A stretch of DNA of 10,428 bases. Origin: Candidatus Micrarchaeota archaeon (GTDB lineage: Archaea; Micrarchaeota; Micrarchaeia; Norongarragalinales; SBBD01). The stretch covers positions 1 through 10,428 of the forward strand of contig JBDRLB010000033.1 in the NCBI GenBank assembly GCA_043813365.1. Reading direction: 5' to 3'. Position 1 is the stretch's first letter; each line of letters begins with the position of its first letter. The notes under the pieces were generated by a model. The model worked only from the letters and a program-made list of their open reading frames with translations. It was not told the origin of the DNA and ran no database searches. Shown here piece after piece: positions 1,321 through 7,114 of this stretch. Both the position numbers and the translations under genes were made by a program.

Positions 1321-4059
1321 ATGCCTGAAAAGAAAATCGTGTATTTCAACGTACCCGCAGGTGAGAGAGATCCGATGACTAACGGAAACGGGAAGCTGCT
1401 CAAGATCAAGAAGCGCGACGGCAGGATCGTGGAATTCAACAAGGACCGCATCACAACCGCAATCTGGAAGGCCGCGAAGGCAGTTGGAGGAAGGGACAAG
1501 GCGCTTGCCAATGCATTGACCGATACAGTTGTGGACCAGCTCGGAAAGCAGTTCAAGGAAGGCAATTTCCCCAGCGTGGAGGACGTGCAGGACACTGTTG
1601 AAAAGGTGCTCATTGAGGGCGGCTATGCGAAGACCGCTAAGGCATACATAATTTACAGGCAGCAGCGCCAGGAGTTGAGGGAGGAGAAGAAACGCATACT
1701 CGAAAAGGATGAGATTGACGAGGTTGACAAGGTATTCGACTTGAACGCGCTCAAGGTGCTCAAGGCAAGATACCTCAGGAAGAACGAGGAAGGGAAACTG
1801 ACCGAAACCCCGAAGCAGCTTTTCACGCGGATCGCCATCCATACGGCGCTCCCGAACATAATCTACGATGCAAGGGTTTTCGACCAGAAGGCGCAGCAGA
1901 AAGTGCAGCCGCAGGAGGAGTTCGATCCAGCATCATTCGAATTTAAATTTTCAATAGGGAAATACCAGCTCAACCGCTACCATCTCGAAGCGCTAAAGCG
2001 CATGTACGGCCGCATGAACAGTTCGGGCCAGATGAAAATCGCTTTCAGCAGCATGATGGGGATGCTTTCCAAAGGCGAATTCTCGAAGTGCGAGGCGGGC
2101 ATAGATGACAACTATAATGTGATGGTGAGCAGGAAGTTCATGCCCAATACGCCAGCAATAGCGAATTTCGGCAACTCGCTCGGGATGGGAAGCGCGTGCT
2201 TCGTCATAGGGGTGGAGGATTCCATCGAGAGCATCATGGAAGGGCTGAAGAACACCGCAATCGTATTCAAATCCGGCGGGGGAATGGGATACAATTTCTC
2301 GCATCTTAGGCCGGAGGGCGATTTCGTGAGCTCAACATCGGGAATAGCAAGCGGCCCGCTCTCATTCATGCGCTTATTCGACACGATGACCGAAGTGATA
2401 AAGCAAGGCGGGATAAGGAGGGGCGCGAACATGGGGATCCTGAACTCCAACCACCCCGACATAGAAAAATTCGTGAAGGCGAAGGAGGGCAACAAGGCTC
2501 TCAGGAATTTCAACATTTCCGTCCTGCTTATGCCCGATTTCTGGGAATATTACGAGAAGAACGAGCCCTACCCGCTGGTGAACCCCAGGAATGGGGAAGT
2601 CGTGCGCACAGTAAATCCGCGCCGGCTTTTCGACATGATAGTATACCAGGCATGGGAATCTGCCGAGCCTGGAGTGATCTTCTACGACAAGGTGAACCAA
2701 TACAACCCGTTCCTCGAGCATATGGGCCCCATCATCACAACTAACCCCTGCGGCGAAGTGCTTCTTTACCCGTTCGAGAGCTGCAACCTTGGAAGCATCA
2801 ATGCATGGAATTTCGCGAAGGAGGATGAGAACGGCAAAACGTATTTCGATTGGGAAGCGCTCAAGCAGACCGTTTTCCTCACTACTGAATTCCTCGACAA
2901 TGTCATCGACGTGAGCAAGCACCCGCTGCCGCAATTCGAGGAGATGACGCTCAACACCCGCAAAATAGGATTAGGAGTCATGGGATTCGGCGATTGCCTG
3001 TATGAGCTGCGCATACCCTACAATTCCGAGGAGGGGAGGGCCTTTGCAGGAAAACTGATGGAATTCATCAACTACTGGAGCAAGGTGAAGAGCATTGAGC
3101 TTGCAAAAACGCGTGGCTCCCTTCCTTATTACAGCAAGAGCTTCTACCCGCAAGGGAAGATGCCAATTGCGGGCGCATATTCGAAAGAAGTGCAATTCGA
3201 TTGGGCGAAGGTAGGGGAGGATACGAAGAGGTTCGGCATCAGGAACGGCTTCACTACGGTTATCGCACCCACAGGAAGCATCTCCATGATAGCTGGCTGC
3301 TCTTCAGGCATCGAGCCCGTTTATTCGCTTGTTTTCGAGAAGAACGTGAAAGTGGGTTCGTTTTATTACATCGACGGCGCATTCGAAAAGGCAATGAAGG
3401 ACGAGGGGATCCACGATGAGAAGCTGATGGCCGAAATCAACGAGAACGGCGGCAGCGTCCAGCAGATAGGGTACATAACGCCAGCGCTCAAGAAAGTATT
3501 CGTCACTGCCATGGACATCACTCCCGAAGATCACATCCGCATGCTAGCAGCGTTCCAGAAATGGACCGACTCCTCCATAAGCAAGACCAACAACTTCCCT
3601 GCGGAAGCAACAGTAGATGACATGCGCGAGAGCTACCTCCTAGCGTACAAGCTCGGATGCAAGGACGTGACCGTTTTCCGCGATTCCTCCATCAAGGACC
3701 AGGTGCTCGTCGCCCCTCCGAAAAAATCGGTGCAGATGGCGGAAGCGAAAAAGGCGCAGGAAAGCACGCCCTCGCAAACATATGCTCACCCGCAGAACCC
3801 CACAGCCGCCTCCTCCACCCCAAAAAACATTACTGCAGAATCCCTGTTGCAGAAGCACGAAACAACCATGAAAGTCATGAACCAAAGTGCGGCCGAGCCT
3901 AAGGCGGCATATGCGAACATGAAGAACGCGGATTTCGCGAACATCACTTTCGGGGACAAGAATATTCAAAATTGCCCCTCCTGCAATTCCGAACAGCTGG
4001 AAAAGAAGGAGGGCTGCCTCACCTGCGCGGACTGCGGCTGGGGCTATTGCAGCGCTTGA
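1321..4059 (+). CDS. nrdJ: Class II (adenosylcobalamin-dependent) ribonucleotide reductase with N-terminal ATP-cone
   Basis: ATP-cone (IKKRDGRIVEFNKDRI), FMPNTP, SACFV, GGGMG, QGGIRRGANM, catalytic TNPCGE, ESCNLGS, RKIGLGVMG, IAPTGSIS, DSSISKT and a C-terminal CPSC...EGCLTCADCGWGYC tail. There is no class I YY pair and no nrdB nearby. An alternative start is ATG 1375 (AGGTGA upstream). Confidence 0.95.
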   Translation: MPEKKIVYFNVPAGERDPMTNGNGKLLKIKKRDGRIVEFNKDRITTAIWKAAKAVGGRDKALANALTDTVVDQLGKQFKEGNFPSVEDVQDTVEKVLIEGGYAKTAKAYIIYRQQRQELREEKKRILEKDEIDEVDKVFDLNALKVLKARYLRKNEEGKLTETPKQLFTRIAIHTALPNIIYDARVFDQKAQQKVQPQEEFDPASFEFKFSIGKYQLNRYHLEALKRMYGRMNSSGQMKIAFSSMMGMLSKGEFSKCEAGIDDNYNVMVSRKFMPNTPAIANFGNSLGMGSACFVIGVEDSIESIMEGLKNTAIVFKSGGGMGYNFSHLRPEGDFVSSTSGIASGPLSFMRLFDTMTEVIKQGGIRRGANMGILNSNHPDIEKFVKAKEGNKALRNFNISVLLMPDFWEYYEKNEPYPLVNPRNGEVVRTVNPRRLFDMIVYQAWESAEPGVIFYDKVNQYNPFLEHMGPIITTNPCGEVLLYPFESCNLGSINAWNFAKEDENGKTYFDWEALKQTVFLTTEFLDNVIDVSKHPLPQFEEMTLNTRKIGLGVMGFGDCLYELRIPYNSEEGRAFAGKLMEFINYWSKVKSIELAKTRGSLPYYSKSFYPQGKMPIAGAYSKEVQFDWAKVGEDTKRFGIRNGFTTVIAPTGSISMIAGCSSGIEPVYSLVFEKNVKVGSFYYIDGAFEKAMKDEGIHDEKLMAEINENGGSVQQIGYITPALKKVFVTAMDITPEDHIRMLAAFQKWTDSSISKTNNFPAEATVDDMRESYLLAYKLGCKDVTVFRDSSIKDQVLVAPPKKSVQMAEAKKAQESTPSQTYAHPQNPTAASSTPKNITAESLLQKHETTMKVMNQSAAEPKAAYANMKNADFANITFGDKNIQNCPSCNSEQLEKKEGCLTCADCGWGYCSA

Positions 4060-4071
4060 AAGTGAATTCGC

Positions 4072-4491
4072 ATGGAAAAAAAATTAGGCCTTATTCCTTT
4101 CCTTCTTCTTTTTTCCCTATTTGCATCAGGATGCACTTCGCAGAAAATCACCGAGCCCATATCCGTCGCCACCTTGGTACCGGAAATGGTTGCATTGGAA
4201 GTCACGATAGATGACGGCAATTTCCCCGTTTCCAAAATAATCGAGGTGGAGAAAGGCACTTCGGCACTGGCCGCATTCGAGAAGGCTGCAAAACTGGAAT
4301 ATAAGAAATACCCGTTCGGATCCTACGTATATTCCATCAACGGCAAAAGGGAAAACACGTACAATGACGGCCGCTATTGGCAGTATTACGTGAATGGGAA
4401 GATAGCAATGGTCGCGGTTGACAACTTCATAATCACATCCGGCGCAAGGCTGGAATTCCGGTACGAGAAGCAGAATCCTGAAATAAGGTAA
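4072..4491 (+). CDS. DUF4430 / transcobalamin C-terminal (beta-domain)-like lipoprotein, putative cobalamin-binding (CbrS-like)
   Basis: N-terminal KK plus hydrophobic stretch plus lipobox-like FASGC (Cys21). Contains the DUF4430-type pattern GTSALAAF...FGSYVYSING...YWQYYVNG...VAVDNF...G.RLEFRY. Starts 12 nt after the nrdJ stop. Confidence 0.85.
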   Translation: MEKKLGLIPFLLLFSLFASGCTSQKITEPISVATLVPEMVALEVTIDDGNFPVSKIIEVEKGTSALAAFEKAAKLEYKKYPFGSYVYSINGKRENTYNDGRYWQYYVNGKIAMVAVDNFIITSGARLEFRYEKQNPEIR

Positions 4492-4510
4492 AATTCGAGG
4501 GGGAAATTAA

Positions 4511-5926
4511 TTGCAAAAAAATATCGCCGCAGTGCTCATATTCGCAGTTCTGCTCAATTCCATCCATGCCGTCGATGTCCCCCTAGCGCTCGAATTCATC
4601 AAGGCAAAGCAGCTTCCCAACGGCGCATTCGACTCGTTCTCTTCTCCCCACTCTCCATCCGCAGTGCTTGCGCTCCATGCGTTTGAGGCAGATTCCCCTA
4701 ACTTGACAAATGGGCTCGCGTTCCTTAAATCCGACCTTGAGGACGATAATTCGTATGCATGGGGCGAGGCGGATCTCATCGGGCTCTCTCTTTATGCTTA
4801 TGCCCGAGCAGGCAACCTTTCAGATTTGAACCCGACCGGAATCATCCCTAGGCTAATCGCAATGCAGGGAGAAAACGGCGGCTTCAAAGGCTACTCGCAA
4901 TGCCTTGAAAACTGCTCCGACCCCGACTGGACGGTGCAGGTGTGGGGCGCAACTGAGGATTCCATAAGCACTTCTGCAGCATTGATGGGCCTCATCGCTT
5001 CCGGTTATATCGATGAAACCCTGAAAAACAGCTCCCTGCTCTACCTGGCTTCGCTTAAAAATTCCGACGGCAGCTACAACCTCACTCATGAAATAAAGCT
5101 AGGCTCGTTCTGGTCCCTCGCTCCGGATGCATATTCGCAAACAGCTTTCGTGCTTTGGGCACTGAACAAAGCCGGTAAAACAGAAGCTGATGTTGTGGAT
5201 TCCCTCGCCTACCTAGAGACTGCTGTTCAAATGAATTTCAACGATAGGAACCGGACATATGCCGCAGCATTGGCATCAATTGCATTTGCCACTTACAACC
5301 GCACCAACTCCTCGATTTATTCGCTTGAAAACCTTAGGTGCTCCCAAAACTCAGACGGCGGCTTCAGGGACTCCTCCAGAATGGCAACAGGCTCCAATGT
5401 AATGGATACGGCGTTCGCGCTCCTGGCAATCGGCAATAATATGGCATTAAACTGCTCCTCTTCAGGCATGGGCAACTCAACAAATTCCTCCAATTCAACG
5501 CCCTCCGTTTCACCTTCGCCATCACCATCCACGTCACCAACTGAAACAATATCGCCTTCCCCCACAACAAGTTCCAGCAGCTCAAGCTCAAATAATTATT
5601 ACTACCAGCAGCAATACGAATACCCGAGCGCTTCTCCAACGCCTTCACCCAAAGTTACTCCATCTCCTTCGCCCTCCGCTTTAAAAAAAATAATTGCGGA
5701 TGCACCCTCGCCCACTCCCCAACCTACTCCCAGCCCCTCAGCAACAGTTAAAAACCAGACCGCAGAAACAACTCCGTCCCCAACAGAAATGGGAAAACGG
5801 GATGATAAGGCGCCTCCGACAGGATTTTTCGTCGGCGCGAATATGCAAAACATGGCATATGCCGGAATCATCTTCATTGCCCTCGGCTTAGTCTTCATGG
5901 GATTCAAGAGCGGTGTTTTCAAATGA
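4511..5926 (+). CDS. Secreted, C-terminally membrane-anchored alpha6/alpha6-barrel (prenyltransferase/squalene-oxidase repeat) protein with Ser/Pro/Thr-rich stalk
   Basis: TTG start preceded by GAGGGGG, then a signal peptide. Repeats QLPNGAF, QGENGGF, KNSDGSY and QNSDGGF are each followed by a T/S-AxAL helix. A long (S/T)P-rich linker leads to PPTGFF, a transmembrane helix and a basic tail. Confidence 0.8.
   Translation: MQKNIAAVLIFAVLLNSIHAVDVPLALEFIKAKQLPNGAFDSFSSPHSPSAVLALHAFEADSPNLTNGLAFLKSDLEDDNSYAWGEADLIGLSLYAYARAGNLSDLNPTGIIPRLIAMQGENGGFKGYSQCLENCSDPDWTVQVWGATEDSISTSAALMGLIASGYIDETLKNSSLLYLASLKNSDGSYNLTHEIKLGSFWSLAPDAYSQTAFVLWALNKAGKTEADVVDSLAYLETAVQMNFNDRNRTYAAALASIAFATYNRTNSSIYSLENLRCSQNSDGGFRDSSRMATGSNVMDTAFALLAIGNNMALNCSSSGMGNSTNSSNSTPSVSPSPSPSTSPTETISPSPTTSSSSSSSNNYYYQQQYEYPSASPTPSPKVTPSPSPSALKKIIADAPSPTPQPTPSPSATVKNQTAETTPSPTEMGKRDDKAPPTGFFVGANMQNMAYAGIIFIALGLVFMGFKSGVFK
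5455..5785 (+). repeat. Low-complexity Ser/Pro/Thr coding repeats (SPSPSPSTSPT, SPTPSP, PSPTPQPTPSPS)
   Basis: Visible in the translation. Codons are diversified, so this is a protein-level linker rather than a DNA tandem repeat. Confidence 0.7.
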
Positions 5927-6453
5927 GCTTAATTTCCGGAATAAAATTCGCTTTAGGGCTGGCAGTCATCACTATTTTGCGAATGATCCAGATGCCCCTC
6001 CCCAACATCGAGCCCATAATGGCAACAATGCTCCCGTTCGCTAAAAAATACGGGAAAATAGCGGGATTCGTTTTCGCATCCGTTGCACTTGCATCCTTCG
6101 ATTTCATTTCCGGAAGGCTTGGGATGTGGACGATATATTGTGCAATTGCATATGGTGCAATCGGTTTTGCAGCAGGAAAATATTTTGCAAACAAAAAAAC
6201 CCACAAAATGCGCTATTATTTGGGCTTCGGGGTTATCGGAACCATTTTTTATGACGCAGTTACCGCCCTGCTATTCGGCTTCCAGTTCGGCCAGCCGCTT
6301 GCTGTCACAATAGCGGGGCAAATTCCGTTCACGCTCTATCACCTGATGGGGAATATGGCGATGATCGCAATTCTATCTCCGCTGGTTACAATGGCAATTG
6401 TGGAGAATCCTGCTCTCGTAACAGATAAGGTTTCAAGAGTAATAGAAAGTTAG
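5923..6453 (+). CDS. ECF transporter S-component, CbrT-like (putative cobalamin-specific)
   Basis: 176-aa hydrophobic protein with about 5-6 TM segments. Motifs LPNIEPIMA..L....YG...G and IPFTLYHLMGN resemble the PNxxP and PFDxxHxxGN motifs of CbrT-type S-components. ATGA overlap with the upstream stop suggests translational coupling. Confidence 0.75.
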   Translation: MSLISGIKFALGLAVITILRMIQMPLPNIEPIMATMLPFAKKYGKIAGFVFASVALASFDFISGRLGMWTIYCAIAYGAIGFAAGKYFANKKTHKMRYYLGFGVIGTIFYDAVTALLFGFQFGQPLAVTIAGQIPFTLYHLMGNMAMIAILSPLVTMAIVENPALVTDKVSRVIES

Positions 6454-6469
6454 CCTCCAGAATACGACC

Positions 6470-7114
6470 CTATTCTTCCTCCCAAACTTTGCTTGATTTT
6501 TTACGATCACCTAAGGGATGATCATGGCGTTCAAAATCAACAGGGCGATCGAACCCTTCGTCTGCCAGATACAATCCAAGTTGACGACGTGCCCTATTCA
6601 TCCGAGACTTTACTGTGCCACGAGGGATACTGAGCATACTCGCAATATCCTTATCAAGAAAGCCCGCATTATCCAGCTCGAAAACTGAGTGGAAAAGGGG
6701 ATGATTTTTACGAAGTCTATTTATTGCTCGGCCAAGTGCATTGCCGAGTATGGCGTTCGTCCTCTCGCCTTCAGCAGTCAACTGGCGAGGGTATAAAGAA
6801 CCTATAACATCGCATTGCGAAGCTCGTAATTTTTGCTCGGTCTTGATTGCCCTCGAAATATTTTGTTTGTTCATCACGGCTAGGCCCGTAATAAATGTTC
6901 TGAAAGGGGCAACTTTTGGGTCCCATTTTTCAAGGGAATGCGGCACATTGTCCAATATGCGATCCAAATACCGTTGTAAATGATATCCGTCCCTGCCATT
7001 AAAGGCTCGTAACAAAAATTTTTCCAAATATGGTCGAAGCGCCATATGCAGCTCGCCAAACTCGCCGGTTGCCCTTGCCTTAAGCGCCAATTCGTTTATC
7101 TGTCTGGCATTCAT
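6470..7114 (-). CDS. Sigma-70 ECF-family sigma-factor-like protein (regions 2 and 4)
   Basis: Region-2-like FGELH..LRPYL and WDPKVAPFRTFITGLAVMN. Strong region 4 HTH signature KDIASMLSIPRGTVKSRMNRARRQL. The 214-aa length is typical of ECF sigmas. Confidence 0.8.
   Translation of the reverse strand: MNARQINELALKARATGEFGELHMALRPYLEKFLLRAFNGRDGYHLQRYLDRILDNVPHSLEKWDPKVAPFRTFITGLAVMNKQNISRAIKTEQKLRASQCDVIGSLYPRQLTAEGERTNAILGNALGRAINRLRKNHPLFHSVFELDNAGFLDKDIASMLSIPRGTVKSRMNRARRQLGLYLADEGFDRPVDFERHDHPLGDRKKSSKVWEEE

Follow-up and report, generated by a model that had tools for sequence, protein, structure and literature searches.

The 10,428-base contig JBDRLB010000033.1 of a Candidatus Micrarchaeota archaeon (assembly GCA_043813365.1), which was analysed here as a whole and is referred to below as the window, carries three adjoining genes directly behind nrdJ, the gene for a vitamin B12-dependent ribonucleotide reductase. 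They encode a DUF4430 lipoprotein, an alpha/alpha6-barrel protein and a membrane protein with the predicted fold of an energy-coupling factor (ECF) S-component. The three genes are proposed, with a probability of roughly 0.6, to constitute a corrinoid (B12) capture-and-uptake module in a Micrarchaeota-like DPANN archaeon unable to make B12, and the module is probably co-transcribed with nrdJ. The cluster itself is real and conserved. An earlier note, made from the sequence alone, had described it as a candidate 'split transcobalamin', a description that holds for the beta domain of the lipoprotein and for a functional link of this protein to the barrel; clamping of B12 in trans by the lipoprotein and the barrel is unproven, and homology of the barrel to the alpha domain of the animal B12 carriers is not supported. 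The window represents the entire contig (C33) of a 1.34-Mb genome (G000), which is 88.6 % complete and distributed over 78 contigs.

Together with nrdR and nrdJ, the three genes form a cluster of five tightly spaced genes on the same (+) strand. Their positions, the gap of 19 nucleotides (nt) between the first two, the overlap between the last two and the location directly after nrdJ were found to be exactly as the earlier note had placed them:

673-1158, + strand: nrdR, encoding a ribonucleotide reductase repressor of bacterial type; leads the cluster, 162 nt from nrdJ
1321-4059, + strand: nrdJ, adenosylcobalamin-dependent class II ribonucleotide reductase; stop codon at 4057-4059, 12 nt from the next gene
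4072-4491, + strand: DUF4430/SLBB lipoprotein gene, 139 amino acids (aa); ATG at 4072, TAA at 4489-4491, 19 nt from the next gene
4511-5926, + strand: alpha/alpha6-barrel protein gene, 471 aa; TTG start at 4511, preceded by GAGGGGG; TGA at 5924-5926
5923-6453, + strand: gene for a CbrT-like membrane protein of S-component fold, 176 aa, six helices (AlphaFold2 (AF2) model and family profile)

The overlap takes the form ATGA, in which the TGA of the barrel gene (5924-5926) shares bases with the ATG at 5923 of the membrane-protein gene. The deduced NrdJ protein (912 aa) scored 691 bits against TIGR02504, compared with a cut-off of 400.

The deduced lipoprotein matched PF14478 (DUF4430) over the full model (1-72) with an E-value of 4.6e-15 and 56.3 bits, compared with a cut-off of 23.8, the transcobalamin-beta-like domain being located at residues 62-133 (4255-4470). 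A profile of ten lipoprotein sequences (A3) was shown to match residues 328-432 of haptocorrin (4kki), which represent the whole beta domain (E 3.8e-5), as well as the transcobalamin-2 beta domain on its own (5no0; E 0.025). A designed repeat protein scored better against the same profile and was disregarded because it presented no significant single stretch. The beta-domain identity first suggested from the sequence is borne out by these matches, indicating that the DUF4430 lipoprotein is homologous to the beta domain with which haptocorrin and transcobalamin bind B12; a beta-grasp fold would be expected from its family membership. The motif that the earlier note had likened to an intrinsic-factor segment is real in kind: in an alignment with haptocorrin, FGSYVYSINGKREN...YWQY is the counterpart of WGPYITCIQGLCANN-NDRTYWEL. 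The N-terminus consists of a hydrophobic signal segment followed by the lipobox LFASGC (codon of Cys21 at 4132-4134), of which G20 and C21 were invariant in all ten lipoprotein orthologues (10/10).

For the barrel protein, hydropathy, composition and the AF2 model indicated the following parts, all encoded on the + strand:

residues 1-20: signal-like segment (hydropathy)
residues 21-315 (4571-5455): alpha/alpha6 barrel (AF2)
residues 318-440 (5462-5830): stalk (hydropathy, composition)
residues 445-471 (5843-5923): C-terminal anchor (hydropathy, composition)

The N-terminal hydrophobic segment spans residues 3-27, and 63 % of the stalk residues are S, T, P or N, indicative of a stalked ectodomain that is anchored at its C-terminus. 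Residues 21-315 were predicted to fold into an alpha/alpha6 barrel with a predicted local distance difference test (pLDDT) score of 90.8, so that the fold proposed in the earlier note stands, while the kinship to the transcobalamin alpha domain implied there is not supported (see below). The lipobox, signal, stalk and anchor are predicted to place both candidate binders outside the membrane.

In Pfam, the barrel matched Prenyltrans (27.0 bits; cut-off 26.5), TED_complement (24.9 bits; cut-off 22) and SQHop_cyclase_C, and drimenyl diphosphate synthase, the alpha-2-macroglobulin TED, C3d and the geranylgeranyltransferase beta subunit were among its other profile matches. DxDD is the catalytic motif of the cyclases, with an Asp acting as general acid; prenyltransferase beta subunits possess a conserved Asp/Cys/His zinc site and TEDs the CGEQ thioester motif. 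At the position aligned to DxDD, the barrel protein reads D-S-I-S, and the family consensus is hydrophobic where the general acid is expected. Neither D.DD nor CGEQ occurs anywhere in the barrel protein, and there is no Cys or His position that is invariant, or close to it, in the barrel-family alignment (A2; 53 sequences). The conserved residues include the polar ones E86, D88, T154, N184, T211, Q279, D287, R290 and D299. The thioester signature was thus absent, as were the active-site signatures of cyclases and prenyltransferases, whose retention the earlier note had regarded as speaking against its proposal, and a non-enzymatic binding role would be the simplest reading of the barrel.

The link between barrel and lipoprotein is suggested by fused relatives. 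Members of the barrel family were found in 66 representative clusters (E 0.001) among 1.84 billion, 51 of which were scanned after 15 short fragments had been dropped. DUF4430 was present in the same chain in 12 of these 51 relatives, 11 of the 12 matches exceeding the Pfam cut-off, and the domain order in 11 of the 12 fusions was barrel followed by DUF4430, as in transcobalamin. Within the same order, genome G086 encodes one such fusion, 300 kb from its own S-component gene. In the window, barrel and beta domain are encoded by separate genes, and the fused relatives represent the best evidence that these two proteins may act together, in agreement with the functional link postulated in the earlier note. 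A word-index search with the lipoprotein returned no longer (fused) homologues, which is weak evidence as the fusions surfaced later from the barrel side. Complex prediction of the barrel (residues 21-313) with the lipoprotein (residues 38-139), both supplied as alignments, gave a score of 0.00 in both runs, with controls not run and no ligand included, and favours neither side. As separate observations, the fused gene in G086 is followed 2 kb to its 3' side by a gene for a 768-aa PF09826 beta-propeller surface protein (G086:C1:751673-753979; L091:11873-14179), and one barrel relative bears the database name 'prenyltransferase/squalene oxidase repeat-containing protein'.

The third protein is predicted to adopt an ECF S-component fold and is related in sequence to the proven B12 carrier CbrT, as had been proposed from its sequence. 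Its AF2 model, based on 33 homologues, exhibited a six-helix S-component fold with a pLDDT of 91.4. In structural comparison using VIA, the best 19 rows were all ECF S-components (Z 11.5-16.4, root mean square deviation (rmsd) 2.6-5.7, 149-169 residues aligned), with the next row at Z 9.3, and the best 23 Foldseek rows listed for this protein were likewise all ECF S-components. The family profile (A1) matched CbrT (6fnp_A) with an E-value of 3.9e-5 over 140 of 179 positions, and this was the sole S-component match in the Protein Data Bank (PDB). Two motifs, R..PN.EP after helix 1 and F.LYH..GN in helix 6, are common to this family (hereafter the S-family) and CbrT. Homologues sharing 45-65 % identity with the membrane protein scored 36.2 and 29.9 bits against PF20221 (DUF6580; cut-off 27), and others matched PF07155 or PF12822 (riboflavin/general S-component models) just under the cut-off. 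A BtuM-like reading of the protein was rejected, as the profile had no PDB match to BtuM at E 10 and the family contains no invariant Cys. On one Micrarchaeota contig (L003:1089-2918, +), an S-component-like N-terminus belongs to a 609-aa frame that runs into a GT4 glycosyltransferase, which points to a genuine fusion or else to an overlooked stop or start.

A sample of 401 genomes of the phylum contained 56 in which the S-family was detected, the present genome included, and gene neighbourhoods were compared for the window and for 40 of the other 55 positive genomes (at most 16 kb each; the 15 weakest matches were left out). The S-component gene was adjoined by nrdJ in 10 of the 41 loci, which represent five GTDB families of one order, and by a short DUF4430 lipoprotein gene likewise in 10/41. 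A barrel gene adjoined it in eight loci, all of which also contained DUF4430 (8/8). Two loci presented nrdJ with the S-component gene only (L064 and L072), two others DUF4430 with the S-component gene but without a barrel (L057 and L070), and the remaining surveyed loci had unrelated neighbours. In one locus, the S-component gene is convergent with a gene for a B12-binding radical-SAM protein (L054:2880-4349, +), and no NrdJ was found in the corresponding genome.

An iterated DUF4430 hidden Markov model (HMM) drifted during this survey onto proteins of 270-440 aa encoded beside the S-component (family f16); these were not counted, as Pfam does not confirm them, and a DUF4430 match on the barrel of L071, which came only from the drifted HMM, was also rejected. 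In the f16 loci (L060, L062, L063, L066, L067 and L069), the S-component gene overlaps the end of the gene for the 270-440-aa protein. The N-terminal ~100 residues of the f16 proteins bear a weak likeness to DUF4430 (domain-only HMM, E 5e-7 to 1e-3 in four of the six) and their C-terminal part resembles CarboxypepD_reg (Ig-like); they may represent a divergent surface binder. Furthermore, a protein of ~200-220 aa that combines a CggR_N/PH0730-like DNA-binding domain with DUF4443 is encoded in or beside the DUF4430/barrel/S-component cluster in eight of the 40 relatives' loci (L049:5772-6443, L056:5752-6405, L059:10166-10792, L060:9821-10474, L062:9845-10456, L066:5982-6578, L071:9023-9664 and L076:8610-9269) and is absent from the window. 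This protein might be dedicated to regulating the module. Two nrdJ frames, L070:525-4214 (1229 aa) and L072:8523-13049 (1508 aa), are longer than the 912 aa of the window, the extra length being suggestive of inteins.

A need for imported B12 is indicated by the gene content of the genome. A PduO-type adenosyltransferase is encoded on contig 13, and no CobA, CobS or FecCD/BtuC permease, nor a PF02310 B12-binding domain, was found anywhere in the genome at its completeness of 88.6 %. NrdJ looks like the only B12-dependent enzyme of this genome; because it is the only B12 user found and no synthesis genes were found, B12 must be imported, subject to the same completeness. The B12 context described in the earlier note (nrdJ adjoining, PduO present, no genes for cobalamin synthesis or a BtuC-type permease found) was accordingly recovered.

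Based on these findings, the following route is proposed. The lipoprotein and the barrel protein, at the outer face of the membrane, would bind B12 between them or in succession, in a manner similar to the two domains of transcobalamin, and would then pass it to the S-component. The latter would translocate B12 into the cell unaided by an ECF ATPase module, like the unrelated solitary carrier BtuM, and intracellular trapping may pull the uptake. The PduO-type adenosyltransferase would subsequently make the adenosylcobalamin for NrdJ. A more far-reaching version is put forward only tentatively: a CbrT-like S-component without an ECF ATPase, fed by a two-piece membrane-tethered clamp, might be a binding-protein-dependent, ATPase-independent vitamin importer, the main B12 route of one ultra-small archaeal order and a free-standing relative of the parts that built animal transcobalamin. 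S-components are considered to work without extracytoplasmic binding proteins, and to our knowledge none has been described as operating in such a binding-protein-dependent, ATPase-independent mode. DPANN archaea depend on supplies from hosts or neighbours, a B12-dependent ribonucleotide reductase was detected in 347 of the 401 genomes sampled from this phylum, and no description of B12 acquisition by DPANN archaea was found in the literature searched. The cluster represents a concrete candidate for such acquisition, which is testable with three small proteins.

A number of results weigh against the proposed uptake module, the first group of which concerns its energisation. EcfT (PF02361) was not found in the genome, nor in any of the six genomes of its genus (84-91 % complete); the same model does detect EcfT in 67 of the 401 genomes of the phylum. 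Likewise, none of the eight ATP-binding cassette (ABC) ATPases of the genome has EcfA as its best match or reaches the EcfA cut-off (0/8), these proteins being of the LolD/MacB, DrrA, PotA/WtpC, SufC, RLI and UvrA types. The 'ECF' in the label chosen by the earlier note is accordingly not supported. Among the 56 S-family genomes of the phylum, EcfT was detected in 21 and none was found in 35, and it was present in one of the ten genomes having nrdJ next to the S-component gene. According to Santos et al. (2018; PMC5997447), the CbrT S-component alone did not rescue Escherichia coli and the ECF module was required, one CbrT having been tested. The carrier of the window would probably work alone, by analogy with BtuM, and this solitary carriage, which conflicts with the failure of CbrT alone in E. 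coli, is the weakest link of the model. In addition, with the threshold relaxed to E 10, the 176-aa membrane protein still had no match in Pfam or NCBIfam (including PF12822, PF07155 and PF20221), and its designation as an S-component rests on fold and family profile for this reason.

A second group of results concerns the barrel. Its nearest relative in sequence was squalene-hopene cyclase (PDB profile E 2.7e-20), and squalene-hopene cyclase was also nearest in structure (1gsz; VIA-align Z 25.4, rmsd 3.5, 284 residues aligned), with Foldseek and VIA in agreement on the closest structures. Generic (alpha/alpha)6 barrels scored Z 17-24 against the model, with rank 50 of the VIA-wide comparison still at Z 17.2. 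Cobalamin_bind (PF01122) did not match the barrel at E 0.01, no cobalamin carrier was observed among the best 60 of its 95 PDB profile matches, and no transcobalamin or other carrier chain was present among the best 50 Foldseek or the best 50 VIA-wide rows. An ESM Atlas search with the barrel returned only SQHop_cyclase, TED and prenyltransferase clusters, with no cobalamin-binding family. Moreover, a barrel was found in only 8/41 loci, from which it follows that it is dispensable for the DUF4430/S-component pair.

A rival reading is that the lipoprotein and the S-component take up B12 and the barrel protein stands outside the clamp, sharing only the operon and having another surface role (envelope, host contact or another ligand). 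The barrel is absent from 33 of the 41 loci, including the two with DUF4430 and the S-component gene and the two with nrdJ and the S-component gene; it is a member of the SQHop_cyclase/TED/prenyltransferase superfamily for which no connection to PF01122 could be detected, and some of its relatives bear PKD or CARDB surface domains in place of DUF4430. Such a separate role is nevertheless considered unlikely in view of the DUF4430 fusions in 12 of 51 relatives, the presence of the barrel beside DUF4430 in all eight loci that have it, and the overlap of its stop codon with the S-component start in the window.

A third group of results concerns B12 as the ligand. Adjacency to nrdJ is limited to one order, and genome-wide co-occurrence with NrdJ is not discriminating, as NrdJ was detected in 44 of the 56 genomes with the S-family versus 303 of the 345 without it (these tallies include two genomes flagged as unpublished). 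Most NrdJ-bearing relatives must obtain B12 another way, and 12 S-family genomes have no detected NrdJ. A homologous system of Lactobacillus sakei, whose operon combines split alpha-like and beta-like proteins with an S-component, was assigned a haem-uptake role by its authors (10.1101/864751). The module could capture another ligand, such as haem or another tetrapyrrole, or an unrelated vitamin or nucleoside. This would be in keeping with the suggestion of Burroughs et al. that 'a distinct metabolite' may be what the SLBB proteins of archaea scavenge (PMC1796856), and with the position of the S-component gene in 31 of the 41 loci, where it is not beside nrdJ; in L002, the homologue adjoins genes for adenylate kinase and Ham1. 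A ligand other than B12 is nonetheless judged rather improbable, given that the location of the S-component gene behind nrdJ spans five families, that CbrT is the single PDB S-component matched by the family profile, and that the genome needs imported B12 and no other B12 importer was found in it. That the barrel is an enzyme, i.e. a terpene cyclase, prenyltransferase or thioester protein, as its best matches to squalene-hopene cyclases (profile and structure) and the name of its annotated relative might suggest, is hardly credible for a single barrel of ~300 aa that is predicted to be secreted and tethered outside the cell, with D-S-I-S at the DxDD position, no D.DD, no CGEQ and no invariant Cys or His for zinc.

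The surroundings of the module were also inspected. NrdR, which contains Zn_ribbon_NrdR and ATP-cone domains, scored 189 bits against TIGR00244 (cut-off 125), and nrdR upstream of nrdJ is retained in eight of the 40 relatives' loci; a bacterial-type NrdR repressor ahead of nrdJ is an observation in its own right in an archaeon. No match to an NrdR-box consensus was found in the window with up to three mismatches allowed, no riboswitch was detected (0 Rfam matches at E 1 across the whole window), and promoter and terminator scans of the window remained at chance level. Just 3' of the cluster, a 214-aa protein encoded on the opposite strand (6470-7114, -) matched bacterial sigma-70 region 4 (E 5.6e-6), and its orthologue (L001:8511-9095, -) also matched region 2 and the ECF-sigma model. 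A sigma-factor-like gene is odd in an archaeon, and it is kept beside the cluster within the genus. Downstream in the window, an archaeal DnaG and a TIGR00288 NYN protein are encoded.

Components of the proposed module have counterparts in several known systems. The PDB entry matched by the S-family profile, 6FNP, is ECF-CbrT of Lactobacillus delbrueckii, which transports cobalamin and cobinamide (Santos et al. 2018, PMC5997447), and cbrT is located in an nrdJ-cbrS-cbrT-pduO cluster of that organism (PMC5997447). The two systems share a sequence-related S-component (E 3.9e-5), its gene beside nrdJ and a B12-auxotrophic host with PduO. In contrast to ECF-CbrT, the genome of the window has no detected EcfT or EcfA, its PduO gene is located on a different contig, the organism is archaeal and a barrel protein is present in addition. 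A question is thereby raised of how a CbrT-like carrier operates without the ECF module needed by the only tested CbrT, and whether surface binders substitute for it in part.

For bacteria, Burroughs, Balaji, Iyer and Aravind (2007; PMC1796856) defined the SLBB superfamily and described bacterial surface proteins in which SLBB is fused to an alpha/alpha toroid in either order, as well as SLBB-toroid operons with CbiO and CbiQ, for which B12 scavenging was predicted; the archaeal SLBB proteins were listed there with a different ligand suspected and a role in B12 uptake doubted (PMC1796856). The same two domain types, the surface location and the predicted role recur here, and fused relatives exist, whereas the domains of the window are separate polypeptides that accompany a lone S-component, rather than CbiO/CbiQ, in an archaeon. 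A split form was proposed for L. sakei Lsa1836-1840 (2019 preprint, bioRxiv 10.1101/864751), in which a beta-like and an alpha-like protein, both secreted and each a chain of its own, are encoded alongside EcfS/A/T; these two proteins were modelled as a heterodimer, and the authors argue for haem uptake (10.1101/864751). Split secreted beta-like and alpha-like proteins, an S-component and a heterodimeric clamp were therefore already in print, although the L. sakei operon differs from that of the window in having EcfA/A' and EcfT, in not being beside nrdJ and in the haem argued for.

Compared with transcobalamin, intrinsic factor and haptocorrin, the window presents a homologous beta domain, an alpha6/alpha6-barrel partner and, in fused relatives, the same domain order, whereas its two chains are predicted to be membrane-tethered and not soluble, and its barrel is nearer to terpene cyclases, without a match to PF01122. 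A precedent is BtuM (Rempel et al. 2018, PMC6072759), a functional S-like B12 carrier that acts on its own in an organism lacking an ECF module. BtuM shares with the membrane protein of the window its S-component fold and, apparently, its solitary occurrence; in contrast, BtuM belongs to another family, its cobalt-binding Cys has no invariant counterpart in the family of the window, and BtuM has no known surface helpers.

With respect to novelty, the earlier note had known of no such system in archaea. The literature searched (listings and abstracts) contains no archaeal description of such a module and does not contradict that part of the claim, whereas a split pair with an S-component had already been proposed for L. 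sakei and fused bacterial forms had been described in 2007. What is new here is a variant that is archaeal, consists of two chains that are both predicted to be tethered, is linked to nrdJ and lacks a detected ECF module. The design itself is known from a 2007 prediction for bacteria and, as a split form, from a 2019 proposal for a Lactobacillus; the present cluster extends and varies it without adding a new principle.

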